Position numbers and translations under genes: made by a program. From NCBI GenBank assembly GCA_964627095.1, contig CAZVKH010000004.1, positions 2,886 through 66,885 of the forward strand: 64,000 nt of DNA, in the 5' to 3' direction. Of this stretch, positions 12,556 to 62,039 are shown piece by piece. A model generated the notes under the pieces. The model was given only the letters and a program-made list of their open reading frames with translations, made no database searches and was not told the DNA's origin. This DNA is from an uncultured Candidatus Saccharibacteria bacterium (GTDB lineage: Bacteria; Patescibacteriota; Saccharimonadia; Saccharimonadales; JAUPVS01). Positions within the stretch are counted from its first letter, which is position 1, and each line of letters begins with the position of its first letter.

Positions 12556-13806
12556 CTAACGTAATTGCTTGATAAGTTCACCAAACCACTTGGCGCTGGG
12601 GCGCAAGCTACGCTTCATGCCATTTTTGCGGTCCACCGCTACTAGGCCAAATTTGGGCCACCAACCGGCTTCCCATTCAAAGTTGTCTAATAAACTCCAG
12701 TGGAAGTAGCCGCGCAGGTCAACACCTTCGCTCAGAGCCCGTTCCATGGCCACGACAGTTTCTTCGATCCACCAACGGCGGAATTGGTCGTGAGCGTCGG
12801 CCACACCGTTTTCGGTAATAAAGATGGGCTTTTTGTAGCGCGCCCAGGCCCTTAATAGTAACGGGTAGACTCCCTCGGGCTCCATGTACCAGCCCAGGTC
12901 ATTCAGCGGTACCTTGGGGTTATTGGGCTTAAAGTGCTGGTAGTAGTCGGTAAAGTAGTAGTTAATGCCAATAAAGTCCTGCTGGTGGCGAGTGCGCCGC
13001 AAGAACCACCAGTTCCAGGCATAGCGCATCACCTTGGTAGTTGATTCGTCGATAATGTTATGCGGTCGCTTAGCCTGAATATTACCTAGTTGGGCGGCAA
13101 TGCCAACCTGCAGGTGTGGGTGGGCCTTCTTGAGTAATTTATAAGACTGTTTGTGCGCCAGGTGCAGGTTCCTGTAACTGGTAAAGGCCTTCCAGAAGTT
13201 CTTTTCTTGTGGTGGCCGGGTGGCCGTTACGAAACCGAGGCTCATGTAGACATTGGGTTCGTTCAGGGTAACTATGTAACCCAGGTCAGCACCATATTCA
13301 TCGGATATTTTTTGGACGAACCTTAAAAAGTACTTGAGGTTGGCGCGTTTGGCAAAGGCGCCTTTGTCCTGGAACCAAGTTGGCACCGTCCAGTGCCAGA
13401 TATTTAAGAAAGGTTCGATCTTGCGACGGCGCAGTTCGGCCAAGTAGTCGCGGTAATGCGCCACGGCGGCTTCGTCCCACACCCCTTCTTCGGGTTCCAA
13501 GCGGGCCCATTCGATGCTAAAGCGGAAGGCATTCATGTTCATGCTCTCCAGTAGATCAAAATCTTCTTTGTAACGGCTGTAGTGATCGACACCCTTACCA
13601 GAGACATAGTTGTCGGGTTCGGTGGCCTGAGACTTGATGTCGTCCCAATTGGGCAGCCAGTTCAGACGCTTGGGGGCGGTGCCAGCCAGTTCCTTGGCGT
13701 GAGCCAGTTCCCACACCGTCCAGTCGTCGTGCAAGCCACCTTCGACCTGGTGTCCAGCCGTGCTGGCGCCCCAGTAAAAGGATTTTGGAAAGATCGGTTT
13801 AGGCAT
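12556..13806 (-). CDS. glycoside hydrolase family 1 beta-glucosidase
   Basis: N-terminal signature FPKSFYWGASTAGHQVEGG, acid/base TLNEPN and nucleophile ITENG. Confidence 0.85.
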   Translation of the reverse strand: MPKPIFPKSFYWGASTAGHQVEGGLHDDWTVWELAHAKELAGTAPKRLNWLPNWDDIKSQATEPDNYVSGKGVDHYSRYKEDFDLLESMNMNAFRFSIEWARLEPEEGVWDEAAVAHYRDYLAELRRRKIEPFLNIWHWTVPTWFQDKGAFAKRANLKYFLRFVQKISDEYGADLGYIVTLNEPNVYMSLGFVTATRPPQEKNFWKAFTSYRNLHLAHKQSYKLLKKAHPHLQVGIAAQLGNIQAKRPHNIIDESTTKVMRYAWNWWFLRRTRHQQDFIGINYYFTDYYQHFKPNNPKVPLNDLGWYMEPEGVYPLLLRAWARYKKPIFITENGVADAHDQFRRWWIEETVVAMERALSEGVDLRGYFHWSLLDNFEWEAGWWPKFGLVAVDRKNGMKRSLRPSAKWFGELIKQLR

Positions 13807-13811
13807 GGTTC

Positions 13812-14531
13812 TTACTTTACACCAGATGGCCGGAGCTTCATATAATAGTCACGCTCCTCTGGCGCCAAGCGTTCCAAGGCGTAGCGCAGCGCTGTTCGTG
13901 GCATGGTAGCACCGTACTGATCCAAGAAGTCACGCAGGGCGTCTTGGTTCTTTTTTCCAGCCTCGCGCAGCATCCAACCAACCGCCTTGTGCATCAGGTC
14001 GTGCTCGTCGCCCAACAGGATTTCGGCAAGCGCAAAGGTGTCGTCCAGCTGCCCGACCCGAATAAATTGCCAGGTGCTGACCATGGCAATACGCCTCTCC
14101 CATAAACTTTTGGAACGAGCCAGTTTGTACAGCGGGTCACGCGGCTTGTCCATCAGGTAGCCACCAACCACTTGGCGGCAGCTGACATCTACCAAGTCCC
14201 AGTTGTTGATGCGGTCGGTGCGGCGCAAATACAGGTTGTACAGATCTTGCTGTAGAACCGGATCCTTGGCGCGCCTGGCTTGCTCGGTCATGATAATAAC
14301 GGCCGCCAGGCGGTGCTCGTGGATGGGGCTTTCCAGCACTGTTTCGATTTCTTTCAGGTTTAAACCCCTAAAGTCAGCCGCCACTTTGCGTGTTACGGGA
14401 ACGGTGATGCCAATAAAGATGTCGCCTTCGCCGTACTGCCCCTTCCCCGTCTTAAAAAAGCGCTGGGCAAACTGGGCGGCGTGCGGATCGCCGCGCTTAT
14501 CGAGTTCGATCATAAGCAGAGTGGCTGTCAT
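13812..14531 (-). CDS. DNA alkylation repair protein (AlkD-like HEAT repeat family)
   Basis: FAQRFFKTGKGQYGEGDIFIGITVP, NNWDLVD and GWMLRE patterns typical of the DNA_alkylation family. Start set at ATG 14531, 6 nt after the TACAAT box. Confidence 0.7.
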   Translation of the reverse strand: MTATLLMIELDKRGDPHAAQFAQRFFKTGKGQYGEGDIFIGITVPVTRKVAADFRGLNLKEIETVLESPIHEHRLAAVIIMTEQARRAKDPVLQQDLYNLYLRRTDRINNWDLVDVSCRQVVGGYLMDKPRDPLYKLARSKSLWERRIAMVSTWQFIRVGQLDDTFALAEILLGDEHDLMHKAVGWMLREAGKKNQDALRDFLDQYGATMPRTALRYALERLAPEERDYYMKLRPSGVK

Positions 14532-14537
14532 GCAGCT

Positions 14538-14552
14538 ATTGTACGCTATAAT
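14538..14552. promoter_or_regulatory. back-to-back divergent leaderless promoters (AlkD-like / DUF1345)
   Basis: On the minus strand, TACAAT (14543..14538) lies N6 before ATG 14531. On the plus strand, TATAAT (14547-14552) lies N7 before ATG 14560. Confidence 0.6.
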
Positions 14553-14559
14553 GCTTATG

Positions 14560-15213
14560 ATGAAACTGGCGCGCATTCACCGCAAAACCGAACCAATCTG
14601 GCACGTTCAACTGGCCATAGGTGTGGCCATTGCCGTGCAACTCCTTCTTAACAAAAGTTTTGCGGTTGGCCCTCAGAACCTGTTAGCCGGCATTGAGCTA
14701 TTGTTGCTGATTGCGATTAGTATTCCGGGGCGCAAACTTCATAAACACAAGCCTTTGGTAATCCGTCATCTTCTGGCAATTATACTATTGGGAATTATCA
14801 CTGTTTCTAACATTTTGTCGCTGGTGTTGGTTAGCATCGACCTGATTAACGGGTCGTCGGCCGACGGCCACGACTTAATCTTTTCGGCGGTGGTAATATT
14901 TGCCACCAATATTGTTATTTTTGGCTTACTCTACTGGGAGCTCGACGAAGATACTGGTGACGAAGACCCCGACACCACCCGTGATTTCTTGTTTCATCAA
15001 CTCGTCTTGCCTGCCAGCATCACCAAACAACCCTACTGGAACCCAACCTTCTTTGACTACTTGTATGTTTCCATTACCAACGCCACCGCTTTCAGCCCGT
15101 CCGACACCTTCCCGCTAACTCACCGGGCCAAGTTACTTATGGCAATCCAGTCCTTAACTTCGCTCACAACCGTGGTACTGGTGGCATCACGAGCCATTGC
15201 CATTCTGCGCTAG
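14560..15213 (+). CDS. DUF1345-like integral membrane protein
   Basis: 4-5 TM helices and YLYVSITNATAFSPSDT resembling the DUF1345 signature. The track ORF 14203.. is an antisense extension over the AlkD-like gene. Start set at ATG 14560, 7 nt after TATAAT (14547-14552). Confidence 0.55.
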   Translation: MKLARIHRKTEPIWHVQLAIGVAIAVQLLLNKSFAVGPQNLLAGIELLLLIAISIPGRKLHKHKPLVIRHLLAIILLGIITVSNILSLVLVSIDLINGSSADGHDLIFSAVVIFATNIVIFGLLYWELDEDTGDEDPDTTRDFLFHQLVLPASITKQPYWNPTFFDYLYVSITNATAFSPSDTFPLTHRAKLLMAIQSLTSLTTVVLVASRAIAILR

Positions 15214-19572: not shown

Positions 19573-20274
19573 TTAGACGCGGATGTACTGTTGGCGAATG
19601 CTTTGAACCAACTGGCGGCACGGCCCTACTACCTTTTCGGCGTCAGCCAAGACGCTCAGGCGAGCGGGGTCGCGCAAACCAAACACCAGACGCAACAGTT
19701 TAATATGGTCGGCGCCCAGTAAGCCTTGGTCGGCCGGCGCAAAGCACATGCTGTCAAAATCAAAACTGTAACGCTGGTCGGCCACCAACTTAACACCGGC
19801 GGCATCACTGGTTAAATTGGGCTGCAAGCCGGCGATCTGTAGCAGCTGGGCGTCAAACCACAACTCCAGCAAGCCTTCCGACAATCCCCCATCCAAGGTC
19901 TGCAAGGTTCTTTCTAGCAATTCAAAATACTCGTTCTCGGTGGCATCTTCGGTGGCCCGGTTGATACGCTTAAGTAGCTCGTAGCCCAGCATGGTACGAC
20001 CAATGTCGTGCACGATGTTGCCGTAGTGTTTTTGCAGACGCGACGAAATTAAGGTGTGAATTTCGCTCTTGCCCGGCAAGTATGTAATCTGGCTGACACT
20101 AAATAGTTCAATGCCGCCGGCCAGTTTGCTCTTGATCTTACGCACCCCCTTGGCAATTAGGCGAACCTTGCCGTGATCGGGAGTCAGCATGGTAATAATG
20201 CGGTCGGCTTCGCCAAAATTGGTCCGAGCCAACACGATACCTTGGGTCACGATCTGGTTACGGCTGGGGTTCAT
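19573..20274 (-). CDS. recO: DNA repair protein RecO
   Basis: OB-fold N-terminus GIVLARTNFGEADRIITMLTPDHGKVRLIAKGVRK. Its start overlaps the upstream receiver gene stop by 4 nt. Confidence 0.8.
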   Translation of the reverse strand: MNPSRNQIVTQGIVLARTNFGEADRIITMLTPDHGKVRLIAKGVRKIKSKLAGGIELFSVSQITYLPGKSEIHTLISSRLQKHYGNIVHDIGRTMLGYELLKRINRATEDATENEYFELLERTLQTLDGGLSEGLLELWFDAQLLQIAGLQPNLTSDAAGVKLVADQRYSFDFDSMCFAPADQGLLGADHIKLLRLVFGLRDPARLSVLADAEKVVGPCRQLVQSIRQQYIRV

Positions 20275-20657
20275 ACGCGAGCCGGAGACATCAGGCCGAG
20301 TGCTCGCTTAACCAGTTCGTCCAAGCTGGTTTCGGGCTTGTATAAGTAGTCATGAATGCCCAGCTGCGGCCAGTAGTCGCGGCCAATGCCAGGGTGGTCT
20401 TGAGGTACATTGGTATGCAGTAGCACTGGTATATCGTCGCAGTCCGGGTAGGATCTAATTTCGTACAAAAACTCCACGCCATTATGTTTGGGCAGGTGTA
20501 ATTCTAGCACCACTAAAGCCGGTGCATGGTCGTCGATCACCGCCAAGGCCGCCTGGGCGTCGGTCCGCCAAAATACCTGATGGTCAGCCGCCGCAAAGGC
20601 CTGCGCGTAGCTGTCTGCCAGCCCTGCATCCGGTTCTAACAATAATATATTGGCCAT
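20271..20657 (-). CDS. stand-alone receiver-domain protein, atypical (Glu at phospho-acceptor position)
   Basis: CheY-like fold pattern with LLLEPD, VVLELHLPKHNG, LLHTN and YLYKP. The residue aligned with CheY D57 is Glu. Confidence 0.7.
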   Translation of the reverse strand: MANILLLEPDAGLADSYAQAFAAADHQVFWRTDAQAALAVIDDHAPALVVLELHLPKHNGVEFLYEIRSYPDCDDIPVLLHTNVPQDHPGIGRDYWPQLGIHDYLYKPETSLDELVKRALGLMSPARV

Positions 20658-27608: not shown

Positions 27609-28112
27609 CTAGTTGCCGAGGTGGTGGCGGATGCGGTCGACGACGTCGGCGATGACAACCTGGGATTTAACAAGGTAGTCATCGGCGCCAAGTTGGGTGG
27701 CGCGGTCTTTGTCACTGTCCTGGCTCAGGGCGGTCAGCATAATGACCTTAACATTGGCGGTTTCGGGAGTGTTGCGCAAGATGTCGAGGACATCGAAGCC
27801 ACTCACCTTTGGCATCATAACGTCGAGTAAAATAAGATCAGGCTTGTACTGTAAAGCAGTCGACAAGGCTTCTTCGCCGTTGGGAACGCGTTTAACATCA
27901 AAGCTCTCGGCCTGCAGGCGGGTAACGTATACGTTGGCCAGAGCGTCGTCGTCTTCTACTAGAAGGATTTTTTTAAGGGCTGGACCGGTATTGGCAGCTG
28001 GTGCGGCAATAGGTGCGGCAATAGGTGCGGCAGCTGGTGTCTGAACAGGTTCAGTCGTAGCTGGATTTTGTGGTTGTATAGGTGTTTGTGTATCTGTATC
28101 CATAGTGCTCAT
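27609..28112 (-). CDS. single-domain response regulator (CheY-like) with low-complexity N-terminus
   Basis: Canonical LLVEDDD, LILLDVMMPKVSG, IMLTA and YLVKS motifs. The N-terminal Pro/Ala repeat is APIAAPIAAPA. It starts 15 nt after the pyrG stop. Confidence 0.8.
   Translation of the reverse strand: MSTMDTDTQTPIQPQNPATTEPVQTPAAAPIAAPIAAPAANTGPALKKILLVEDDDALANVYVTRLQAESFDVKRVPNGEEALSTALQYKPDLILLDVMMPKVSGFDVLDILRNTPETANVKVIMLTALSQDSDKDRATQLGADDYLVKSQVVIADVVDRIRHHLGN
28000..28032 (-). repeat. 12-bp tandem repeat (2.75 copies) inside the response-regulator N-terminus
   Basis: GGTGCGGCAATA occurs at 28000-28011 and 28012-28023, with a partial third copy. It encodes the APIAAPIAAPA repeat. Confidence 0.8.
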
Positions 28113-37707: not shown

Positions 37708-40323
37708 TTATTTCTTCCTCTTGGCTTTGTTCTTGCGCTTGCGCTCGGCCTTGCGAGCCTTTTTACGGGCATCGGTTGATACCACTTTCTTGGTACGACT
37801 GGCCGGTAAACTCCCCTGTGGAGCAACTTTAAAGTCGGTTTCGACAAACTCGTCTGACTCAATTACCTTGTCGGCGTTATCAATTGAGCGACGAGCTGCT
37901 CGGGTTAACTCAGTTTCGATTGGTTCGTCGTAGTCACTAGCAACAGGTTCGGCATGCAATAAGGTTCGGACGACGTCATGCCTTAGCGTGTCTTGCATGG
38001 TTTCAAACAAAATCTGACCTTGGCGGCGGTACTCGACCAGTGGGTCACGTTGACCAACACTAATCCAGCCAATTCCCTCGCGCAGGTGCTCCATGTTTTC
38101 GAGGTGCTGCATCCAAAGATTATCTAATACCTGCAAGTAAATGTCGCGCTCCACCTTGCGCATATTGTCCGTGCCAAAGGCGGCTGTGCGCGATTCATAC
38201 AAACTAATCGCTTCTTGCACCAAAACCTTCTCGAAACCACTGGCTTCGGTGTCGAACAAACGATCTAGGGTTGGGTCGTCAAAGGCAAAAGCCTCAACAA
38301 TTAAGGCTTCGTAGGTGTCGCTGGTAGCCAATGGTGAGGCCGCTAAAGCACGGGCTTCTTGTTCGATAAAAATACGGATGCGCTTTTCGATATCGGCGCG
38401 GTGCAAAATTTCTTTGCGCATAGTGTAAATCGCACGACGGTGACGGTTCATAACGTCGTCGTACTGCACAACGTTTTTACGCATATCAAAGTTGCGGCCT
38501 TCGACCTTCTTTTGCGCCGATTCTAGGCTGCGTGAAATAATCCGGTTCTCGATTGGCATGTCATCAGGTACATTCATGCGCTGCATAATCGAAGCGATTC
38601 GATCACCACCAAACACGCGCATCAAGTCATCATCGGTGCTAACAAAGAACTGGGTGATACCGGGATCGCCTTGGCGACCGGCCCGCCCACGCAGCTGGTT
38701 GTCGATGCGGCGCGACTCGTGTCGTTCCGAACCAAGAATGAACAAACCGCCTAGTTTCTTGACGTCTTCGTCGAGCATAATGTCGGTACCACGACCAGCA
38801 ATGTTAGTAGCCAGCGTTACGGCTCCCTTTTGGCCAGCCTTGGCAACAATGGCGGCTTCGCGTTCGTTGTTCTTGGCGTTCAGGATTTCGTGCTTGATGC
38901 CCGATTTCTTTAAGAGCTGTGCCAAACGTTCGTTTTTTTCGATCGAGGCCGATCCAATTAGAACTGGCTGCCCTTTCTGCTGCAAGACGCGAACTTCTTT
39001 GATAATGGCGGCAAACTTGCCTTCTTCGGATTTATAAATGCGGTCTGGTCGGTCTTCACGAACAACCTTTTTGTTAGAAGGAATCTGCAGCACATTTAGT
39101 TCGTAAATCTGGTGGAACTCTTCGCTCTCGGTTTCGGCCGTACCGGTCATACCCGACAACTTTTCGTACAAGCGGAAGTAGTTCTGGAAAGAAATTGTCG
39201 CCAGCGTCATTGATTCTTCTTGAACATCAACACTTTCTTTGGCTTCGATGGCTTGGTGTAAACCTTCGTTATAACGTCGGCCCTTCAGCAAACGGCCGGT
39301 GAACTCATCGACAATCACAACCTCGCCATCGGTGGTTACGACGTAGTCTTTATCGCGCTTAAACAGCGCTTCGGCGCGCAAGGCTTGTTCGAGGTGGTAG
39401 ATGGTACGGATATTATCAGTGGCATACAGGTTGTCGATGCCCAGGATCTTTTCGACCTGCTCAACACCTTCGTCGGTTAAGACAACGGCTTTGCGCTTTT
39501 CATCAATTTCGAAGTGATCATCCTTCTTGAGCTGACGGGCCACCTTACTAAACTGCAAGTAGGCGCTGGCGCTAGTGCTGGACGGTGCCGAAATAATCAA
39601 TGGCGTACGGGCTTCGTCAATTAAGATTGAGTCGACCTCGTCGACGATGGCAAAGTGCAGTTCGCGCTGGCGCAACTGGTCGACTTCGCGCACCATGTTG
39701 TCGCGCAGGTAGTCAAAACCAAACTCGTTGTTTGTGCCATAAGTAACGTCGGCGGCGTAAGCTTCTTGGCGCGAACATGGTTTAAGCGGATGCATGCGCT
39801 TGTCGAAATGATTCTTGTTGGTGAAGTTAGCATCATAAATATATGATTCTTCGGCAATAATAACGGCGGCGGTAAGGCCCAAGAAGGCGTAAACTTCGCC
39901 CATCCAACCAGCGTGGAGCTGAGCCAGATAGTCGTTAACGGTAACCACGTGAACACCTTTTTCGGTCAATGCGTTCAAGTAAACCGGTAAGGTAGCTACC
40001 AAAGTTTTACCTTCACCAGTTTTCATTTCGGCTACACTTCCCTCGTGTAAAGCCATACCGCCAATCAATTGCACATCGAAGTGACGTTGGCCAATCGTAC
40101 GATCAGCAACTTCGCGCACCAGTGCAAAAGCGTCGGGTAAAATTGCATCAAGGCTTTCTTTTTTAAGGCGCTTCTTGAGTTTAGTAGTCTGGTCTTTGAG
40201 CTGCGCGTCGGTCATTTTTTTATACTTTGGACCAAGGTTGTTGACAACCGCCACTCGTTTTTGCAAACGCTTTAGTGTTTTGGCCTGGGGGTCCCCGAGT
40301 ACTTTCTTAAAAATCTTCTTCAT
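37708..40323 (-). CDS. secA: preprotein translocase ATPase SecA
   Basis: MKTGEGKTLVATLP Walker A, DEVDSILIDEARTPLIIS and a basic C-terminal tail. Confidence 0.95.
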   Translation of the reverse strand: MKKIFKKVLGDPQAKTLKRLQKRVAVVNNLGPKYKKMTDAQLKDQTTKLKKRLKKESLDAILPDAFALVREVADRTIGQRHFDVQLIGGMALHEGSVAEMKTGEGKTLVATLPVYLNALTEKGVHVVTVNDYLAQLHAGWMGEVYAFLGLTAAVIIAEESYIYDANFTNKNHFDKRMHPLKPCSRQEAYAADVTYGTNNEFGFDYLRDNMVREVDQLRQRELHFAIVDEVDSILIDEARTPLIISAPSSTSASAYLQFSKVARQLKKDDHFEIDEKRKAVVLTDEGVEQVEKILGIDNLYATDNIRTIYHLEQALRAEALFKRDKDYVVTTDGEVVIVDEFTGRLLKGRRYNEGLHQAIEAKESVDVQEESMTLATISFQNYFRLYEKLSGMTGTAETESEEFHQIYELNVLQIPSNKKVVREDRPDRIYKSEEGKFAAIIKEVRVLQQKGQPVLIGSASIEKNERLAQLLKKSGIKHEILNAKNNEREAAIVAKAGQKGAVTLATNIAGRGTDIMLDEDVKKLGGLFILGSERHESRRIDNQLRGRAGRQGDPGITQFFVSTDDDLMRVFGGDRIASIMQRMNVPDDMPIENRIISRSLESAQKKVEGRNFDMRKNVVQYDDVMNRHRRAIYTMRKEILHRADIEKRIRIFIEQEARALAASPLATSDTYEALIVEAFAFDDPTLDRLFDTEASGFEKVLVQEAISLYESRTAAFGTDNMRKVERDIYLQVLDNLWMQHLENMEHLREGIGWISVGQRDPLVEYRRQGQILFETMQDTLRHDVVRTLLHAEPVASDYDEPIETELTRAARRSIDNADKVIESDEFVETDFKVAPQGSLPASRTKKVVSTDARKKARKAERKRKNKAKRKK

Positions 40324-42051: not shown

Positions 42052-42056
42052 ACTTA

Positions 42057-42066
42057 TATTATACAG
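42057..42066 (-). promoter_or_regulatory. -10 region CTGTATAATA, leaderless serS
   Basis: TATAAT (42063..42058), then 6 nt, then ATG 42051. Confidence 0.6.
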
Positions 42067-42281
42067 CTATCTGGCTAGACCTTTAACATATCAAGCTGTT
42101 TGGCGAGGCTACTGGCTTGGTCGGCGACAACCAACATCTGATCGGTCGGTATATTCTGGCTAATTATAGCCACGTATAATTTTCTATCCTTAATTTCAAC
42201 ACAGGTATAAGGCATACTGCTGCAGACTGGCTCAAGTAGAGCGCGAACCTTGTCTAGTAGAGCCTGCGACGTACCAGCTGC

Positions 42282-43509: not shown

Positions 43510-44202
43510 TTATTGTAGCAGTTTGGCGACGGCGGCAACAGCGGCAGTTTCGGCGCGCAGCGTAAAGTCGCCCAACGGCAGCCGGCCAATTTCTTGAGTC
43601 ACAAATAGTTGCTTCTCTTGATCACTCCAGCCACCTTCGGGCCCGATTAGCACACCAACCTCGCTATAATTTGGTTGTCGTTGCTTGGTTAGTTCGTGCT
43701 GTTCGCAGACAAACAACGGCACTTTGCCGGCAAATTCGTGCAAAGCGGTTTGCAACAACAGCGGCTGTCTAATAGATGGAATATCGCCACGGCCACATTG
43801 TTCAGCGGCTTCGATAACAATTTTTTGGGCGCGCTCCTCGTTAAAGCCAGTCTTTTCGGAGCGTTCGGCCAGCACCGGCACCAAGTGGCTGGCGCCCAGC
43901 TCGGTCGCCTTCTGCAACACCCAGTCGTTCTTATCTTTCTTAAGTAGCGACCAAAACAAGTAAACCTCTTTGCTTGGCAGCTTGGCCACAAAGTCAGTTA
44001 GTAGCTCCAACTTAGCATGATCCTGGGCTAGTTCGTTCAGGCTATAAAGCTTTTCATGACCTTGACCGTCGAACAGAACTACTTCTTGGCCAACCCGAAA
44101 GCGCAATACCTTGCGCCACTGATCAACTAAGCGCTGCTCGCGAACTTCAACATAGTGCCCCAGGTGCAACTCTGGACCAGTGTAAAAACGGTGCAACCTC
44201 AC
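43510..44202 (-). CDS. rsmE: 16S rRNA (uracil1498-N3)-methyltransferase RsmE
   Basis: MRLHRFY N-terminus (PUA-like) and a C-terminal SPOUT knot IGPEGGWS. Confidence 0.8.
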   Translation of the reverse strand: MRLHRFYTGPELHLGHYVEVREQRLVDQWRKVLRFRVGQEVVLFDGQGHEKLYSLNELAQDHAKLELLTDFVAKLPSKEVYLFWSLLKKDKNDWVLQKATELGASHLVPVLAERSEKTGFNEERAQKIVIEAAEQCGRGDIPSIRQPLLLQTALHEFAGKVPLFVCEQHELTKQRQPNYSEVGVLIGPEGGWSDQEKQLFVTQEIGRLPLGDFTLRAETAAVAAVAKLLQ

Positions 44203-44840
44203 TTCTGACTACCCCCAAAGGCCTGCTTAGTCAGAATACTTACTAGTTCCTGTGGGGTATGTGCCAAGTAGTCTGGCTGGTATTTCTTTAGAATGGTTTC
44301 ACCGTTGTAGCCCCAAGTCACTGACACCACCGGGATTTTGCTTTTGTGAGCAGCTTCGATATCGCGCACCTCGTCACCCACATAGATGGCATCGCTGGCC
44401 TTGGCCTTCTGGTCCTTTAAGACAACCTTAAAGACGCGCGACTTACTAAACAAACCGACGTTGCCGTAAACGCGGTCGACATATTGTTCAATTTTTTCAC
44501 GCCCTAAAACCTTGCGTATATTCTCTTCGCTATTCGAGCTAACCACCGAAATCTGAAAACCTTGGTCGTGCAGAGTTTTTACGACAGCATCTATGTCGGG
44601 GAAGGCCTTGAGCTCACCCAAACGCGCCCCTAGTAACTTCTTGCCTTTTATCATTAAACGCAACAGCTGCCAGTATGGTACGCCACTATATTTAATGATC
44701 TCACGCGCCGGCATCTCGCGGAATTTAGCCAACTCCTGGTCGCTCAGATCCAAGCCTGGCACCATCTGCCCGGCAATACTAACCGCCACTGGCAAACTGT
44801 CTACCAGCGTGCCGTCAAAGTCGAAGATGACATGCTTCAT
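44199..44840 (-). CDS. HAD family phosphatase (phosphoglycolate phosphatase-like)
   Basis: Motif I IFDFDGTLVDS, motif II VVSSN and motif IV VGDEVRD. It starts 9 nt after the heliorhodopsin stop, and its own stop overlaps the rsmE start. Confidence 0.7.
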   Translation of the reverse strand: MKHVIFDFDGTLVDSLPVAVSIAGQMVPGLDLSDQELAKFREMPAREIIKYSGVPYWQLLRLMIKGKKLLGARLGELKAFPDIDAVVKTLHDQGFQISVVSSNSEENIRKVLGREKIEQYVDRVYGNVGLFSKSRVFKVVLKDQKAKASDAIYVGDEVRDIEAAHKSKIPVVSVTWGYNGETILKKYQPDYLAHTPQELVSILTKQAFGGSQK

Positions 44841-44849
44841 GAGCCTGCC

Positions 44850-45701
44850 CTACGGTCGAAGCGTCCCAAAGAATACCTGCCAGGCTAAAGCCGACTTGGC
44901 CACCAAACTCAAAATCATATAAACTCGTTCGCCATACAAGTAATCGGCCCACTTGCCGACCTTCTTATACTGCAGATACATATTGACCGCAAAGCTCATA
45001 AAGAATAAGAACATGCTCAGGTAAATCCAGTAAACAAAGCTCGGGATCTGGCCGCTACCGTAGGCCGAAGCGCCGGCTACATAAATACCAAAGACGAACC
45101 ATGGCACTATGCCGGCCAGACAACCAATGTTGTAGCTAATCCAGCTGGTTTTTTTGGTAGTCTGGTTGTGAATCTCCATAACCAAGCCCATCATATTCAT
45201 AATAAAGTCGAGCACAAAGATCATCAGCAAGCTAGACAGATCATAAACACCACTCAACATGGCAATCGCCACCATCATGGTGCTGGCACTGATGCCATAC
45301 TCGAACCAACGCGCTTTGTTGATACCCTTCTTTAGGTCGGCTTCGTAGGTTTTACGATAAACCGTCGCGATTACCAAGTGTGCAATGGCTGACATAAAGA
45401 AGAAAGCCGCCACCAAGTAAGCCAAGTTAACATCAAACAGGTGCCGACTGGCGGCCACCAAAACCGGATTACCACTTTGCGATGCCAGCGTATCCAGCGT
45501 TAGATAGTTGGTTGTTACGGGGAAAGTTGAACTTTGGCTAAGCAGCAATACAGCCACTCCTTGCACAAAATGCAGACCGGCCATCACCAAGTTCCAGCTA
45601 TTCAAGCTAGCCAAACTAATCTTAGGTTTTTTGACCGCTTGCTTGGTTGTCTTGGTTGTTTTTGTAGTCTTTGCGTTCTTTGAGGTAGATTTTTTTGCCA
45701 T
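44850..45701 (-). CDS. heliorhodopsin (7-TM retinal protein, inverted topology family)
   Basis: Similar by eye along its full length to the heliorhodopsin prototype as I recall it. Matching segments are SLNSWNLVMAGLHFVQGVAVL, ARWFEYGISAS (Glu counterion position), GCLAGIVPW, and LQYKKVGKWADYLYGERVYMILSLVAKSALAWQVFFGTLRP (Schiff-base Lys in SLVAKS). Confidence 0.8.
   Translation of the reverse strand: MAKKSTSKNAKTTKTTKTTKQAVKKPKISLASLNSWNLVMAGLHFVQGVAVLLLSQSSTFPVTTNYLTLDTLASQSGNPVLVAASRHLFDVNLAYLVAAFFFMSAIAHLVIATVYRKTYEADLKKGINKARWFEYGISASTMMVAIAMLSGVYDLSSLLMIFVLDFIMNMMGLVMEIHNQTTKKTSWISYNIGCLAGIVPWFVFGIYVAGASAYGSGQIPSFVYWIYLSMFLFFMSFAVNMYLQYKKVGKWADYLYGERVYMILSLVAKSALAWQVFFGTLRP
45642..45668 (-). 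repeat. 9-bp tandem repeat encoding the (KTT)n N-terminal extension of the heliorhodopsin
   Basis: CTTGGTTGT occurs at 45642-45650 and 45651-45659, with a degenerate third copy at 45660-45668. Confidence 0.75.
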
Positions 45702-45707
45702 GCCTCT

Positions 45708-45716
45708 ACTTTAGCA
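45708..45716 (-). promoter_or_regulatory. extended -10 promoter TGCTAAAGT, leaderless heliorhodopsin
   Basis: TGC+TAAAGT (45716..45708), then 6 nt (AGAGGC), then ATG 45701. Confidence 0.55.
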
Positions 45717-45732: not shown

Positions 45733-47052
45733 TTAGCGCTTGTGTCGACGAACGGCGGCGACAGCCACGCCCATACCGGCGACAGCCGTAACACCAGCGA
45801 CTTTAGCAGCTCGTATTACTTGACGGCGACGCTTTTCGTGAGAGTCGTTGGGTTTGACTTCTTCATCAACAGCTTTGTCAGCTGGGATTTGGGCAGCAGC
45901 TATCTCAGGAGCCACTTGTGGGGCGGCCGCAACTGACTCACCAAGCTCGGCTAATCGGCGTTCAACTGCCTGGTTGACGATGAAGTCGAAATCACCAAAC
46001 CTAGCATCGATTATTCTCTGGACGCTGGCCAATTTTTCTTTTACTTCTTGGGCAAATTCTTCTTCTTTTAGGGCGAAGTAGGCGTCAATACCTTCTTTAC
46101 TTAACACTTCGGGGGTGGCCCTAGCAGGAGCAGTTGCTTCAACTGGTTCAGCGGCTGGCTCATCGTCGCCTCTTAGAATTTTAGGAACCACCCTTGTAGG
46201 TGCCGTGCCAGGGATGCGGCGTTTACGGCGACGCAACACAGGCGTGTTGTCAGGGTAGACCATATCTTCTGGAAGTAATGCTGGTGGTAGTTTAACCTTT
46301 TTTCCACGTTTATCGCGGACCGTGTCTCGACGCCAGCCAAGTACGTTGTCACGCTCAGGTATAGCTATATATGAACCCGTCGATCGCTCTTCTGGGCTGT
46401 TCAAATATACCGGGTGAACGTCTTGGTATTCGGCCTTAAGATCGGGGTCAGCGGCTAAAGCATCGGCACCAAATAATTCCTTGAACCGTTCCTCTGTGAG
46501 AACCTTTTTATAGTGCATCGGCTTTGAAAAAAATACTTCGTCAGCTTTTTCACCTTTTAGAGTGTAGTACCTTGGCGCTTCAGTATCTGTTGCATGGCCG
46601 TCAGTTGGTTTGGCAAGATTGGGTGCTGGCGAAGTGGCCGGGCTAGCAGTTGGCCAGCTAATCTTCTTATATAGCGTGTTGGGAGGACTAGGAACGACGG
46701 GCATTGCCTGGGTCTCACCGTCATTAGCTCCTACCACGCGCTTCTTTACATCGCGGGTTGGCGCAGCCGGTTCTGCTGCGGGTGCTGAATCCTGAGCTCC
46801 CTGACCGAACCTGCCAACAAGACCAGTGCCTCGTACAAGACGAGGGGTTATTTCATCGCGTGGCACACCAGTTACTGCAGCTATTGCATCAATGTCTAAA
46901 TATCCTGCCAGTTTCACCTGATCTGGAGTTGGCTGTGCCGCTACCGGAGGTGCTGCGGGCATCTGAATTTCGCCCCAATCTACAATAGGCAAAGCTGGAC
47001 CAGCTTCGGGGCCAGGTGCGGGCACAGCTGAAGGAAAGCGTGGATTTGTCAT
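45733..47052 (-). CDS. hypothetical Pro/Ala-rich protein with C-terminal TM anchor
   Basis: 439 aa, with C-terminal VAGVTAVAGMGVAVAAV followed by RRHKR. No known motif. Start set at ATG 47052, 7 nt after TGTTAGTAT. Confidence 0.45.
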   Translation of the reverse strand: MTNPRFPSAVPAPGPEAGPALPIVDWGEIQMPAAPPVAAQPTPDQVKLAGYLDIDAIAAVTGVPRDEITPRLVRGTGLVGRFGQGAQDSAPAAEPAAPTRDVKKRVVGANDGETQAMPVVPSPPNTLYKKISWPTASPATSPAPNLAKPTDGHATDTEAPRYYTLKGEKADEVFFSKPMHYKKVLTEERFKELFGADALAADPDLKAEYQDVHPVYLNSPEERSTGSYIAIPERDNVLGWRRDTVRDKRGKKVKLPPALLPEDMVYPDNTPVLRRRKRRIPGTAPTRVVPKILRGDDEPAAEPVEATAPARATPEVLSKEGIDAYFALKEEEFAQEVKEKLASVQRIIDARFGDFDFIVNQAVERRLAELGESVAAAPQVAPEIAAAQIPADKAVDEEVKPNDSHEKRRRQVIRAAKVAGVTAVAGMGVAVAAVRRHKR

Positions 47053-47059
47053 AGGTGTT

Positions 47060-47068
47060 ATACTAACA
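47060..47068 (-). promoter_or_regulatory. extended -10 promoter TGTTAGTAT, leaderless 439-aa gene
   Basis: TGT+TAGTAT, then 7 nt (AACACCT), then ATG 47052. Confidence 0.6.
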
Positions 47069-47090
47069 TAAACGGGTTGTTTTTGCAACT

Positions 47091-47588
47091 TTATTTTTCT
47101 GTATGTTGGTCTACGGACTGGTATGGAATATGGCACATTCCCCTGCCGGTACGTTCGGCAAATTTCTGGTGATAGGCTTCGGCCGGGTAAAACTCACTTG
47201 CTGGTGAGATTTGGGTAACAATCGGTTCTGGCCAGTTATCTTGGGCTTCGGCTTTGGCGGCCTCGGCAGCCTTTTGCTGTGACTTGTCTTGGTAGAAAAT
47301 AGCACTGCGATAGCTGTCGCCGACATCGGGACCTTGGCGATTGAGCTGGGTTGGGTCATGCAGTCTAAAGAAGTGTTGCAGTAGAATTTGGTAACTGACT
47401 TGTTTAGGGTCAAAAGTGACCTGGACGGCTTCGGCGTGGCCGGTGTTATGGGTGCAAACCTCTTCGTAAGTGGGGTCTTGGGTATGGCCACCGGTGTAGC
47501 CAACAATTGTTTTGGTGACGCCGGGAATTTGGTCAAAATAGTATTGCACTCCCCAAAAACAGCCGGCCGCGAAAATTGCTTGTTCCAT
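47091..47588 (-). CDS. msrA: peptide-methionine (S)-S-oxide reductase MsrA
   Basis: AAGCFWGVQYYF catalytic Cys motif and GHAEAVQVTFDP. Confidence 0.9.
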   Translation of the reverse strand: MEQAIFAAGCFWGVQYYFDQIPGVTKTIVGYTGGHTQDPTYEEVCTHNTGHAEAVQVTFDPKQVSYQILLQHFFRLHDPTQLNRQGPDVGDSYRSAIFYQDKSQQKAAEAAKAEAQDNWPEPIVTQISPASEFYPAEAYHQKFAERTGRGMCHIPYQSVDQHTEK

Positions 47589-47595
47589 GTTAGTC

Positions 47596-47601
47596 AGTAT
47601 A
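47596..47601 (-). promoter_or_regulatory. -10 box TATACT, leaderless msrA
   Basis: TATACT (47601..47596), then 7 nt (GACTAAC), then ATG 47588. It sits immediately after the terminator at 47606-47637. Confidence 0.6.
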
Positions 47602-47605
47602 GCCT

Positions 47606-47637
47606 AAAAAGAAACCAGCCCTAGTGTGTAGGGCTGG
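47606..47637 (-). terminator. rho-independent terminator after the hdeD-like gene
   Basis: On the minus strand, CCAGCCCUA-CACAC-UAGGGCUGG (9-bp stem) is followed by UUUCUUUUU. Confidence 0.8.
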
Positions 47638-47675
47638 CGTTCTCGGCAAGAGACCGAATGGACTGAATTTTAGTA

Positions 47676-49014: not shown

Positions 49015-50547
49015 TTAGGCTTCTAGTTTGAGACGTTTTATTAGCCAGTCGCGCGGCAGCATACTCAAGAACCAACCAGCGCGCGGTCCGGAGTCTTTGC
49101 CGATTAAGACTTGGTAGAGCGTAGTAAATAGCTCTTTGGGGGCAAGCTCGGTTTGGTCCTTGAATTCATAGATGGCTTGGTGGAACCATGCGCCGTCGGC
49201 GTCTTGAGGAGCATCGGCGACTTTTTGACCCAACTGCTGCAGGTAGGTTTTCTGGGCTTCGGATAACGAACTGGTTTGAAGTGTTTGTAGCGGCTCGAAC
49301 TTAACGTCCTCGGGAGCCCACAGCTTAAGCCACTCACTAATAAAAGCTAGTTCCCTAATAATAATGTCGCGATCTTCGCCGACCACCTTACCGTATTCGG
49401 TGCGGGCTAGGATTTCGAGTGTCTTTTGGGCATCTTTCAAAGCTGCCTGGTAGCTGGCGACTAAGTGAGAAAATGGCACACGGCTGACCGTTTTTTCTTG
49501 GCTGCCCCGGTTGCATACGTACAGTAGTTGCTGGTCCGACTCGGACAGGTCGGGCTGGCTACTGAGAGCAGCGTACTCATCAACCAGTTTAATAGTGCCC
49601 TCGGTTTGGTCAAAGTAGAGGCGTTTGGCTGGCGCGTAGCGCAACATGAAGAAGCGCGTTACTTCGGCTGGTAACACCTTAATAATTTCGGTAGCCTGGA
49701 TACCGGTGCCCCGGCTGGCACTCATCTTTTTATTGTCGCCGGCCAGGTTCACAAAATCGTATGGCACGGGGATCGGTGGATTGGCCTTATAAATTTGTTC
49801 CATCATGCCAACGCCGGTGTCAAATGAGCCACCCTTTGTAGCGTGATCACGGCCAAACGGCTCGGCGTTAACGCCAAGCAGCCACCAGCGACCCGGCCAG
49901 TCCAGTCGCCAATCCAACTTAACAGCGCCCTTATCGTAGGCAACGCTCTGAGTGTTACCTTCCTTATCTTCGTAACTAAGGGTCTTGGCTTTAGTATCAA
50001 TCCCCAAGAAGCGACGGTTCTTGAGATAGCCGTCTTCCATAATTTGGATCGGCGACCAGTGCTCATCGAGTTGACGGCCGGCCACAGTTTCGAGGGTTTG
50101 TTTGGCTTGAGCCATATGTTCAAGACAGCGCTCGATAGCCGGTACAAAAAAGCCTTGGCGATATTTTTGGTGACTATAAATAACTTCCATCTCGATACCA
50201 AGCGCCTTGGCACTGGCGATAAAGTCATCCAGAAAATAGTCGGCATAGGAACGATCGGTGCCGTCGGGTGCCGGAATGTCACAGAGTGGTTTGCCCAAAT
50301 ACTTTTCGTATTCGGCCGGTATGTTACCTGGTATCTTACGTAAGCCATCGAGGTCGTCGGCAAAGTGCACATGCCGAGCCTGGCGGCCACGGCGGCGTAG
50401 CTCCAACAGAATAGCGTCACTGGTAATAATCTCGCGCAGGTGCCCAACATGATAGGTACCCGACGGCGAAGCCCCAGATGACACCAGAATTTCACCATCT
50501 GGGTGTTTGGTAATCAACTCATCAACAAGCGTCTGAAGCCACTGCAT
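49015..50547 (-). CDS. lysK: lysine--tRNA ligase, class I
   Basis: Class I signature SGASPSGTYHVGHLRE (HIGH variant) and KMSASRG (KMSKS variant). 510 aa. Confidence 0.85.
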   Translation of the reverse strand: MQWLQTLVDELITKHPDGEILVSSGASPSGTYHVGHLREIITSDAILLELRRRGRQARHVHFADDLDGLRKIPGNIPAEYEKYLGKPLCDIPAPDGTDRSYADYFLDDFIASAKALGIEMEVIYSHQKYRQGFFVPAIERCLEHMAQAKQTLETVAGRQLDEHWSPIQIMEDGYLKNRRFLGIDTKAKTLSYEDKEGNTQSVAYDKGAVKLDWRLDWPGRWWLLGVNAEPFGRDHATKGGSFDTGVGMMEQIYKANPPIPVPYDFVNLAGDNKKMSASRGTGIQATEIIKVLPAEVTRFFMLRYAPAKRLYFDQTEGTIKLVDEYAALSSQPDLSESDQQLLYVCNRGSQEKTVSRVPFSHLVASYQAALKDAQKTLEILARTEYGKVVGEDRDIIIRELAFISEWLKLWAPEDVKFEPLQTLQTSSLSEAQKTYLQQLGQKVADAPQDADGAWFHQAIYEFKDQTELAPKELFTTLYQVLIGKDSGPRAGWFLSMLPRDWLIKRLKLEA

Positions 50548-50553
50548 AGATAT

Positions 50554-50559
50554 ATTGTA
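50554..50559 (-). promoter_or_regulatory. -10 box TACAAT, leaderless lysK
   Basis: TACAAT (50559..50554), then 6 nt (ATATCT), then ATG 50547. Confidence 0.6.
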
Positions 50560-50570
50560 CCTCTTGTTGC

Positions 50571-61277: not shown

Positions 61278-62039
61278 CTAAACAGTTTTATCACCCCAGT
61301 CTGAGAAAACAATGAGGATAACTACAATCGCCATCATAATAAACAGAATTTGCCGCTGGAAAAAGGTCGATAACCGATCGGTTTCGTGTAAGTAGTATAA
61401 GGTTGCCAAGCCAAAGCCGATTACCGATATCAGTAACGTGGGTTGCGCGATTGGGCCATAAAACAGTAGCCAGTGGCTCAATATCCAAACTAAAGCGGCG
61501 CCGAAGTAACCCCACAGGTAAGAAAAGAATCGAGTTTGTGGCTCATCAAAACTGGCCAAAAAGTGGCGCGCTGCTAGGTAGCAGATTGCCCAGCTGGCAA
61601 CGATCAAGCCCAGAGCGTTCATATCACCATAACGTAAGAATAAGGCGGTCATGCCAACAAACTGACCAATTAGTGCCTGGGCCGATACCGATATAACCTG
61701 CGAGCCGGGCTTAATAAATAACAACCAGATTGCATAGACGGCCGCCCAGATCAGTTGAAACAGTTGTGAGTCGGCCTGCACCATAAAGACCAGCAAGGAA
61801 ACACCGACGATGATGTCAATGGCATTAGCCCTTATATTAGCTGGCCAGTGGCGCGGCTTGACCGCCCACATTCGCCATTTGCTAAGCAGAATGAGCAATA
61901 ACGCCAATTGGGCAAAATGAATCCGCACCAAAATATACACCAGAATTGGCAAAAGTAACGTTAATAATAAGTGGAGCGCATGTGCCACGCCATTTTTGGG
62001 ACGAATTTTCTTAAACCGTTTAGTTGGCAACTTGGCCAT
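61278..62039 (-). CDS. hypothetical polytopic membrane protein
   Basis: About 8 TM helices and no known motif. It lies between the LCP and HtrA genes. Confidence 0.45.
   Translation of the reverse strand: MAKLPTKRFKKIRPKNGVAHALHLLLTLLLPILVYILVRIHFAQLALLLILLSKWRMWAVKPRHWPANIRANAIDIIVGVSLLVFMVQADSQLFQLIWAAVYAIWLLFIKPGSQVISVSAQALIGQFVGMTALFLRYGDMNALGLIVASWAICYLAARHFLASFDEPQTRFFSYLWGYFGAALVWILSHWLLFYGPIAQPTLLISVIGFGLATLYYLHETDRLSTFFQRQILFIMMAIVVILIVFSDWGDKTV

Follow-up and report, generated by a model that had tools for sequence, protein, structure and literature searches.

The subject of this analysis is a heliorhodopsin (HeR) gene found on a contig of an uncultured Candidatus Saccharibacteria bacterium (CAZVKH010000004.1, assembly GCA_964627095.1). 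The whole stretch of DNA that was analysed, 64 kb (64,000 nucleotides) in length, is referred to below as the window, and the gene lies on its minus strand at positions 44850-45701. As judged from profile searches, alignments to solved structures and a predicted fold, its product is a genuine, intact and full-length heliorhodopsin. The interpretation adopted here, with moderate confidence, is that it is a native and functional heliorhodopsin of a freshwater-type member of the Saccharimonadales, which captures retinal, acts as a slow light sensor or regulator, and is expressed from a leaderless promoter of its own.

Identification of the heliorhodopsin gene

The family assignment is based primarily on profile searches. 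The protein matches Pfam PF18761 with 311 bits (E 5e-93; cut-off 26.7 bits) over profile positions 1-242 of 242, and the NCBIfam equivalog NF038020, "heliorhodopsin HeR", with 317 bits (equivalog cut-off 100 bits). Both scores lie far over their cut-offs and the whole Pfam model is covered, in agreement with the first-pass annotation of this DNA, in which a full-length heliorhodopsin had been proposed from the letters and translations alone. The motifs quoted there are all present in the translation. These are SLNSWNLVMAGLHFVQGVAVL in transmembrane helix (TM) 1, with His44 inside; ARWFEYGISAS in TM3, with Glu134 inside (codon 45300-45302); GCLAGIVPW, which corresponds to residues 193-201; and the TM7 block with SLVAK, which contains Lys269 (codon 44895-44897).

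Heliorhodopsins of the PDB align to the protein with E values of 1e-45 to 1e-73. The best match among solved structures is TaHeR (6IS6/7U55), with E 8.5e-74 and 52% identity over 247 aligned residues, followed by 48C12 (6SU3), the family prototype, with E 2.7e-50 and 42% identity. The first-pass annotation had likened the protein to 48C12 and described the TM7 block as nearly identical. Membership of the same family and the match of the block around the Schiff-base lysine were borne out (30/41 residues identical to 48C12), but TaHeR is the closer relative both over the protein and in the TM7 block (34/41).

Relatives were collected by a HeR scan of one genome per species, which gave 178 related HeR stretches; counts of loci out of 80 given below refer to the best 80 of these. 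At E <= 1e-20, the clade comprises 4,689 proteins. The nearest relatives in the species-representative genomes share 94% and 85% protein identity with the window HeR. Close relatives are entered in NCBI under the name "heliorhodopsin HeR [Candidatus Saccharibacteria bacterium]", with the nearest deposited relative 94% identical, and the exact 283-residue protein sequence is itself already in NCBI, on an 83-kb contig and without a protein name.

Functional residues, predicted fold and topology

To locate the functional sites, HMMER alignments of the HeR to TaHeR and 48C12 were read residue by residue (Table 1). The residues required for HeR photochemistry are all kept, namely Lys269, Glu134, the pair His44/His108, and Ser138/Ser265. 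The lysine of SLVAK, which had been proposed as the Schiff-base lysine, aligns to the corresponding lysine of both references, and Glu134, His44 and His108 also fall on the reference sites, as expected earlier. Across 80 relatives, in an alignment covering 65-95% identity, H44, H108, R131, E134, S265 and K269 are invariant, which indicates purifying selection on these positions.

The AlphaFold2 model, calculated on the alignment of the 80 relatives, has a mean predicted local distance difference test score (pLDDT) of 89.1 and a predicted TM-score (pTM) of 0.84. It consists of seven long helices and a beta-hairpin between TM1 and TM2, with strands at residues 60-69 and 81-91, and corresponds to the HeR fold. 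In a Foldseek comparison with the PDB, the top matches are all heliorhodopsins. TaHeR gives a TM-score of 0.91-0.92 with a root-mean-square deviation of 1.9 Å, and 48C12 gives 0.85-0.89, whereas for type-1 rhodopsins E is 1e-3 or higher and TM-scores are approximately 0.55-0.6.

The resemblance to TaHeR (Thermoplasmatales archaeon SG8-52-1; 6IS6, 7U55, 7CLJ) extends beyond identity and fold (TM-score 0.92 for the best match). The complete H23/H82/R105/E108/S112/S234/K238 set is shared, as is the fenestration tyrosine (Y164, here Y190). The differences are that TaHeR is archaeal, that the window HeR adds a 21-residue Lys/Thr-rich N-terminal extension, that it has 4-5 more residues in the TM1-TM2 loop and in the TM5-TM6 loop, and that it has Met235 in place of TaHeR Asn204. 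With 48C12 (6SU3, 6UH3), the protein shares the fold, the H23/H80/E107/S237/K241 residues and the SLVAKSALAWQ core; this prototype differs in being more distant than TaHeR, of actinobacterial origin, and short at its N-terminus.

Access to the retinal pocket is through a lateral fenestration. A preprint (10.1101/2025.11.27.691015) assigns it to 48C12 residues F162, C166, G169, F206 and A210, and these positions are kept in the window HeR as Tyr190, Cys194, Gly197, Phe234 and Ala238. The same preprint describes an asparagine by the fenestration (48C12 N207) as conserved in HeRs. Here, this position, beside the carotenoid/retinal fenestration, is occupied by Met235 (codon 44997-44999). Among the 80 clade members, it is Ser in 45, Asn in 20, Met in 8, Ala in 5 and Thr in 1.

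Membrane orientation was assessed from the distribution of charged residues. The loops on the N-terminal side carry 18 Lys+Arg (8 without the tail), and those on the opposite side carry 2. Under the positive-inside rule, this places the N-terminus in the cytoplasm, as the first-pass annotation had assumed, and it indicates the inverted topology that defines the HeR family, with the N-terminus cytoplasmic and the C-terminus outside.

The cytoplasmic tail that precedes the first helix appears to be disordered. In the AlphaFold2 model, residues 1-20 have a pLDDT of approximately 50, and predicted secondary structure begins no earlier than residue 30. The first-pass annotation had described this Lys/Thr-rich extension as encoded by a 9-bp tandem repeat, and the repeat proved to be real but weak (Table 1). 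Relatives carry comparable tails of 0-76 residues ahead of the first helix, rich in Lys, Thr, Ala and Ser and with 30% Lys; thus, the Lys-rich tail is a variable feature of the clade and not a peculiarity of the window gene. Lys-rich low-complexity tails are also found in the window at the C-termini of a topoisomerase fragment (43-690) and of SecA (37708-40323), and such tails are possibly a general proteome trait of the lineage.

Host lineage and origin of the gene

On the evidence of related loci and gene order, the host chromosome is that of a member of the Saccharibacteria, which belong to the candidate phyla radiation (CPR). Approximately 70 of the 80 best HeR loci come from records with Saccharibacteria, Saccharimonadales or Saccharimonas in the title, and the remainder are mostly other CPR bacteria or metagenome-assembled genomes (MAGs) without a taxon name. 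One HeR-bearing relative is a complete, closed chromosome of 669,327 bp (OZ246413.1). Homologues of the genes flanking HeR in the window are present in 20 to 47 of the 80 related loci, and one relative of 20.8 kb (L003) is colinear with the window, with 93% of its length aligned at 85% DNA identity. The earlier impression of a CPR-type genome is consistent with all of these observations, and the organism is probably a tiny, host-dependent Saccharibacteria bacterium.

The composition of the gene is also that of its surroundings. The G+C content at third codon positions (GC3) is 0.59 for the HeR gene and 0.54 ± 0.06 for the other genes, a difference of less than one standard deviation. The colinear flanks and the GC3 value together mark the gene as native to a Saccharimonadales chromosome, neither a chimera nor a recent island; these two possibilities were considered and are effectively refuted by synteny and GC3. 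Furthermore, other sequencing runs yielded two more contigs that encode an identical HeR protein, and on one of these the neighbouring genes are also the same.

The window as a whole has a G+C content of 49.8% and is approximately 91% coding, with the minus strand predominating. Pfam annotation of all 74 open reading frames (ORFs) of at least 60 amino acids revealed an ordinary housekeeping gene content. It includes the division cluster mraZ-rsmH-ftsL-PBP-ftsW, the tRNA synthetases for Gly, Ser, Pro and Lys (the last of class I), and genes for SecA, RF1, RF2, S2, EF-Ts, RRF, L27, L31, UppS, RseP, HtrA, an LCP protein and CTP synthase. Rfam and tRNA scans found no tRNA or rRNA genes in the window and consequently provide no RNA-based taxonomy or riboswitch context.

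Predicted leaderless promoter

Upstream of the HeR gene, the minus strand reads ...TTTTTG, TGCTAAAGT, AGAGGC, ATG, so that a gap of 6 nt separates the extended -10 box from the start codon. This box had been pointed out in the first-pass annotation. It could be regarded as a chance occurrence, since the bare TGnTAnnnT pattern is found approximately once per kb per strand and a generic sigma-70 scan detected no -35/-10 pair at the HeR start. This explanation was overturned by positional conservation across loci. The pattern followed by a spacer of 6-7 nt and an in-frame start is found at 47 of the 80 HeR loci, compared with 147 of 1,289 other genes of the same loci (11%; Fisher p = 4.5e-22), and the spacer is exactly 6 nt in 34 loci and 7 nt in 13. 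The AGAGG sequence was also considered as a Shine-Dalgarno motif and was rejected because it ends just 1 nt from the ATG.

When a -10 hexamer ends 6-7 nt before the ATG, transcription is expected to start on the start codon itself, at its A or the adjoining nucleotide, and the HeR mRNA is therefore probably leaderless. The conserved arrangement suggests that the gene has a dedicated leaderless promoter, which remains a prediction from motif and position. It further predicts that HeR is expressed independently and possibly in a regulated manner, which could be checked in existing freshwater metatranscriptomes.

Boxes of this type are not confined to HeR. Across 1,384 genes of these loci, TAnnnT hexamers peak at positions -12, -13 and -14 relative to the start codon (11.6%, 8.0% and 7.2%, respectively, against a background of approximately 3%), and a Shine-Dalgarno-like motif is missing in 41 of the 64 window genes of at least 100 amino acids. 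Leaderless-type promoters thus seem to be common in these Saccharibacteria, with examples in the window at 47589-47608 (upstream of MsrA), 42052-42071 (SerRS) and 50548-50567 (LysRS).

Chromophore supply

The first-pass annotation had recognised no retinal or carotenoid gene (blh, crtB/I/Y) in the window, and the Pfam scans of its 74 ORFs led to the same result. BCD/Blh (PF15461) and RPE65 (PF03055) had no match at E <= 1e-3, and SQS_PSY (PF00494, for phytoene synthase), Amino_oxidase (PF01593, for phytoene desaturase), lycopene cyclase and polyprenyl synthase (PF00348) were likewise absent from these ORFs, as was the type-1 rhodopsin family (Bac_rhodopsin). The sole isoprenoid enzyme in the window is UppS, the undecaprenyl-diphosphate synthase. 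A divergent Blh hidden among the ten ORFs without hits, two of which are multi-pass, was also considered. It was rejected after a repeated scan at E <= 5, in which no BCD or RPE65 signal appeared.

Both multi-pass membrane ORFs lack a significant family match. The first (61278-62039, minus strand) encodes 253 amino acids and has no Pfam match even at E <= 5. The second (14203-15213, plus strand) encodes 336 amino acids and matches DUF1345 below the threshold (15 bits where 31.8 are required; E 0.016), and its N-terminal part resembles an over-extended start.

Published surveys provide a context for these findings. Jaffe et al. 2022 (PMC9296517) reported rhodopsin-bearing Saccharibacteria without blh and proposed the hosts as a source of retinal. 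According to the same paper, an opening in the TaHeR apoprotein allows it to bind retinal rapidly, and its source organism is described as having no pathway for retinal synthesis. Regeneration of the TaHeR apoprotein is reported to take tens of seconds. As no retinal pathway was found in the window, and none in the published surveys of rhodopsin-bearing Saccharibacteria, the apoprotein probably captures exogenous all-trans-retinal.

Proposed function

The intact photochemical core under purifying selection, the retained fenestration and the position of TaHeR as the closest characterised relative best support a retinal-binding, slow-cycling photosensor or regulator. In this mechanism, the fenestration of the apoprotein would admit all-trans-retinal that other cells, for example an actinobacterial host, have made. 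Once light has isomerised the retinal, the proton of the Schiff base would probably pass to the internal Glu/His cluster and not be released. By keeping the proton inside, the protein would operate not as a pump but as a slow-cycling sensor or regulator that alters the activity of a partner protein; the locus itself does not point to a particular partner. HeR would probably head a short unit of HeR, HAD phosphatase and RsmE just downstream of MsrA. Such an arrangement would agree with a published proposal in which HeRs aid monoderm cells against light-induced oxidative damage. Regulatory action of HeRs has been described in other lineages, on glutamine synthetase (PMC9529153), photolyase (PMC9769723) and an ABC transporter (PMC11109279).

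Several points weigh against this interpretation. Pigment formation, the photocycle and the lack of ion transport are presumed by analogy, from 52% identity to TaHeR. The presence of Met235, and of Ser in 45 of the 80 relatives, means that access of the chromophore or a carotenoid may differ from that in TaHeR. The HeR promoter is a motif prediction, and -10 boxes of the leaderless type are common throughout the genomes of these organisms. The literature lists ten classes of frequent HeR neighbours, of which none is adjacent to the gene, so that the locus offers the sensor model no output of a known class; glutamine synthetase, photolyase, the MDR ABC transporter, MerR, TerC, SDR, DUF2177 and DUF2238 are absent from the window, and DegV and DUF1295 were not found in it. 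Finally, the MsrA and HAD neighbours are confined to Saccharibacteria loci that share a block of housekeeping genes (in the MsrA-linked loci, ProRS, LysRS, DUF427, SerRS and SecA), so that inherited gene order explains the linkage as well as a functional relationship does.

Gene neighbourhood and alternative explanations

In the direction of transcription, the minus strand carries DUF427, DUF308, a terminator-like hairpin, MsrA, a Pro/Ala-rich ORF and HeR, followed by an HAD-IA phosphatase, RsmE, a PD-(D/E)XK nuclease, SerRS, HPF and SecA (Table 1). The hairpin is a likely boundary of transcription units upstream of the MsrA-HeR block, as far as a consensus scan can tell. The HAD phosphatase gene starts 9 nt past the HeR stop codon and is probably co-transcribed with HeR, to judge from this spacing. 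RsmE shares 4 nt with the end of the HAD gene and is therefore probably part of the same transcription unit. Of the related loci, 17 have the HAD gene as the first one downstream of HeR, and in 9 of these the gap measures 6-9 nt; in 12 loci this place is taken by an RlmD/TrmA-like methyltransferase, and RsmE occupies it in 8. The Pro/Ala-rich ORF encodes 467 amino acids from its longest start, or 439 as called on the Logan contig (L001). It has no Pfam or NCBIfam match, and among the related HeR loci its homologues occur only in L001 and L003, the closest relatives of the window.

Table 1. Coordinates of features at the HeR locus (window numbering) and alignment of functional HeR residues to reference proteins
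Feature	Position	Strand	Basis or equivalent residues	Remarks
Heliorhodopsin (HeR) coding sequence	44850..45701	minus	ORF, Pfam, NCBIfam, PDB alignments, AlphaFold, Foldseek	283 aa, ATG start
Extended -10 element TGCTAAAGT, predicted	45708..45716	minus	sequence and cross-locus conservation	
Lys/Thr-rich disordered cytoplasmic tail	45615..45701	minus		codons 1-29; 10 Lys+Arg, no acidic residues
9-bp tandem repeat	45642..45671	minus	Tandem Repeats Finder, score 39, 80% matches	3.3 copies; encodes (Thr-Thr-Lys)3 in the tail
HAD-IA phosphatase, phosphoglycolate phosphatase-like	44199..44840	minus	Pfam HAD_2; NCBIfam Gph-like matches under equivalog cut-offs	
RsmE 16S rRNA methyltransferase	43510..44202	minus	Pfam Methyltrans_RNA; TIGR00046, 145 bits	
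Pro/Ala-rich ORF	45733..47136	minus		C-terminal hydrophobic anchor; directly upstream of HeR; lineage-specific
MsrA, peptide methionine-S-sulfoxide reductase	47091..47588	minus	Pfam PMSR E 1e-63; TIGR00401, 204 bits	
Terminator-like hairpin	47614..47638	minus	consensus scan	10 pairs then T-run; between DUF308 and MsrA
His44			TaHeR H23; 48C12 H23	proton-accepting pair
His108			TaHeR H82; 48C12 H80	proton-accepting pair
Arg131			TaHeR R105; 48C12 R104	
Glu134			TaHeR E108; 48C12 E107	counterion, single Glu in TM3
Ser138			TaHeR S112; 48C12 S111	
Ser265			TaHeR S234; 48C12 S237	SxxxK motif
Lys269			TaHeR K238; 48C12 K241	Schiff base, TM7

The neighbours raise the possibility of a photoprotection module, in which HeR signals to or modulates the neighbouring MsrA and/or HAD phosphatase, and light readies the cell to repair photo-oxidised proteins. 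Such a module, a narrower form of the sensor model with a named partner, is considered rather unlikely. MsrA is the commonest upstream neighbour in Saccharibacteria; in 29 of 77 loci it shares the strand of HeR and occupies position -1 or -2. The HAD gene often follows HeR directly at the short distance mentioned above, and an oxidative-stress role for HeRs, those of CPR bacteria included, has been proposed by Bulzu et al. 2021 and by Chiriac et al. 2022. However, the ancestral order of the shared housekeeping block is sufficient to account for the linkage. What lies between MsrA and HeR varies: 9 loci carry an opposite-strand sortase there, and other loci carry unrelated ORFs. MsrA also has a -10 box of its own. 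In addition, a full-text literature search returned no paper pairing heliorhodopsin with methionine sulfoxide reductase.

A second alternative concerns energy. The protein could harvest light by means of retinal together with an external xanthophyll bound at the fenestration, or it could transport protons like the viral V2HeR3, in either case supplementing the energy supply of a fermentative cell. CPR cells are short of ways to build a proton gradient (PMC9296517), a viral HeR does transport protons (PMC9448325), and the residues of the carotenoid-binding site given in preprint 10.1101/2025.11.27.691015 are present. Nevertheless, this role is distinctly improbable. The closest characterised relative is TaHeR, and the internal Glu/His proton-accepting cluster is kept as in TaHeR and 48C12. 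According to the preprint, proton-transporting HeRs form part of a mostly viral subfamily without the carotenoid-binding site, and the asparagine to which it ascribes the positioning of the carotenoid is replaced by Met235 here. The antenna idea itself is based on docking and sequence statistics.

A more elaborate proposal is that in these episymbiotic bacteria HeR acts as a gate requiring both light and chromophore, which reports contact with a retinal- or carotenoid-producing host and couples chromophore capture to ribosome maturation or stress repair. The leaderless promoter, if it drives HeR-HAD-RsmE, and the change from Asn to Ser or Met at the fenestration could fit such a role. The fast-evolving, repeat-made poly-Lys/Thr tail could also fit, by docking on ribosomes, nucleic acid or acidic lipids. 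The proposal is nonetheless a long shot.

The idea that the gene does not work in this organism, because it is decaying, was recently transferred, or is chimeric through assembly or binning with a co-occurring actinobacterium, can practically be dismissed: HeRs are indeed common in freshwater Actinobacteria, the presumed hosts, and the G+C content of the gene (46%) is slightly under the window mean of 50%, but the ORF is intact, its functional residues are invariant in the relatives, GC3 is in line with the other genes, the identical protein recurs on the contigs from other runs, and the same housekeeping block surrounds HeR in dozens of independently assembled Saccharibacteria MAGs.

Relation to published work

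For the retinal-capturing sensor or regulator favoured here, it is necessary to separate what is new from what has already been described. In Chiriac et al. 2022 (Microbiome 10:84, PMC9166423), 98 heliorhodopsins were inferred from 1,326 CPR genomes, 80 of them in Saccharimonadia; SLVAK is among the commonest motifs, and a role in oxidative stress is discussed. The Saccharimonadia/CPR HeRs catalogued there share the lineage, the SLVAK motif and the inferred inverted topology with the window HeR, and nothing categorical sets the latter apart, which makes it one more member. Neighbour analyses that include Patescibacteria HeRs have been presented by Chazan et al. 2021 and likewise by Bulzu et al. 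2021.

The type-1 rhodopsins of Saccharibacteria (SacR; Jaffe et al. 2022, PMC9296517) offer a second point of comparison. They come from the same host phylum and depend on external retinal, as blh is absent, and, by analogy with TaHeR, they were proposed to take up retinal rapidly by way of an opening in the protein. They differ in belonging to the type 1 family, in their DTS motif, in their opposite membrane orientation, and in the outward proton pumping that has been shown for them.

HeRs in Saccharimonadia, the SLVAK motif, the missing blh and the idea of retinal supplied by the host have thus already been published, in PMC9296517 and in PMC9166423. Consequently, the identification is a correct call and not a discovery, and the significance attached to this combination in the first-pass annotation was overstated. 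The additions made here are modest and predictive: they concern the conserved leaderless promoter, the variation of the Lys-rich tail among relatives, MsrA and HAD as recurrent neighbours, and the change from Asn to Ser or Met at the fenestration. In the passages of PMC9166423 that were consulted, no such details of promoter, tail or neighbourhood are given.

HeR function is unsettled in most lineages, and a genome of approximately 0.7-1 Mb with few candidate partners is a good place to find the signal output. This small-genome argument for CPR heliorhodopsins has already been made in the literature, and the window gene adds one sequence to a catalogued clade. The clade is large and shows high conservation, and expression studies can use any one of its members in place of another. 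The only recurrent HeR neighbours worth testing as partners are MsrA and the HAD phosphatase.

Further observations in the window

The class of LysRS differs inside one syntenic neighbourhood. In the window (49015-50547, minus strand) and in 15 related loci, an archaeal-type class-I enzyme (TIGR00467, 360 bits) lies upstream of HeR, and in 28 other Saccharibacteria loci a class-II enzyme (PF00152) is found upstream of HeR (for example, L005:6176-7693). Two stand-alone response-regulator receiver proteins are encoded 17-24 kb from HeR, at 27609-28112 and 20271-20657, both on the minus strand; no histidine kinase was detected in the window, and nothing ties these receiver proteins to HeR. A GH1 beta-glucosidase (12556-13806, minus strand, 252 bits) is among the few catabolic enzymes of the window and is located amid housekeeping genes.

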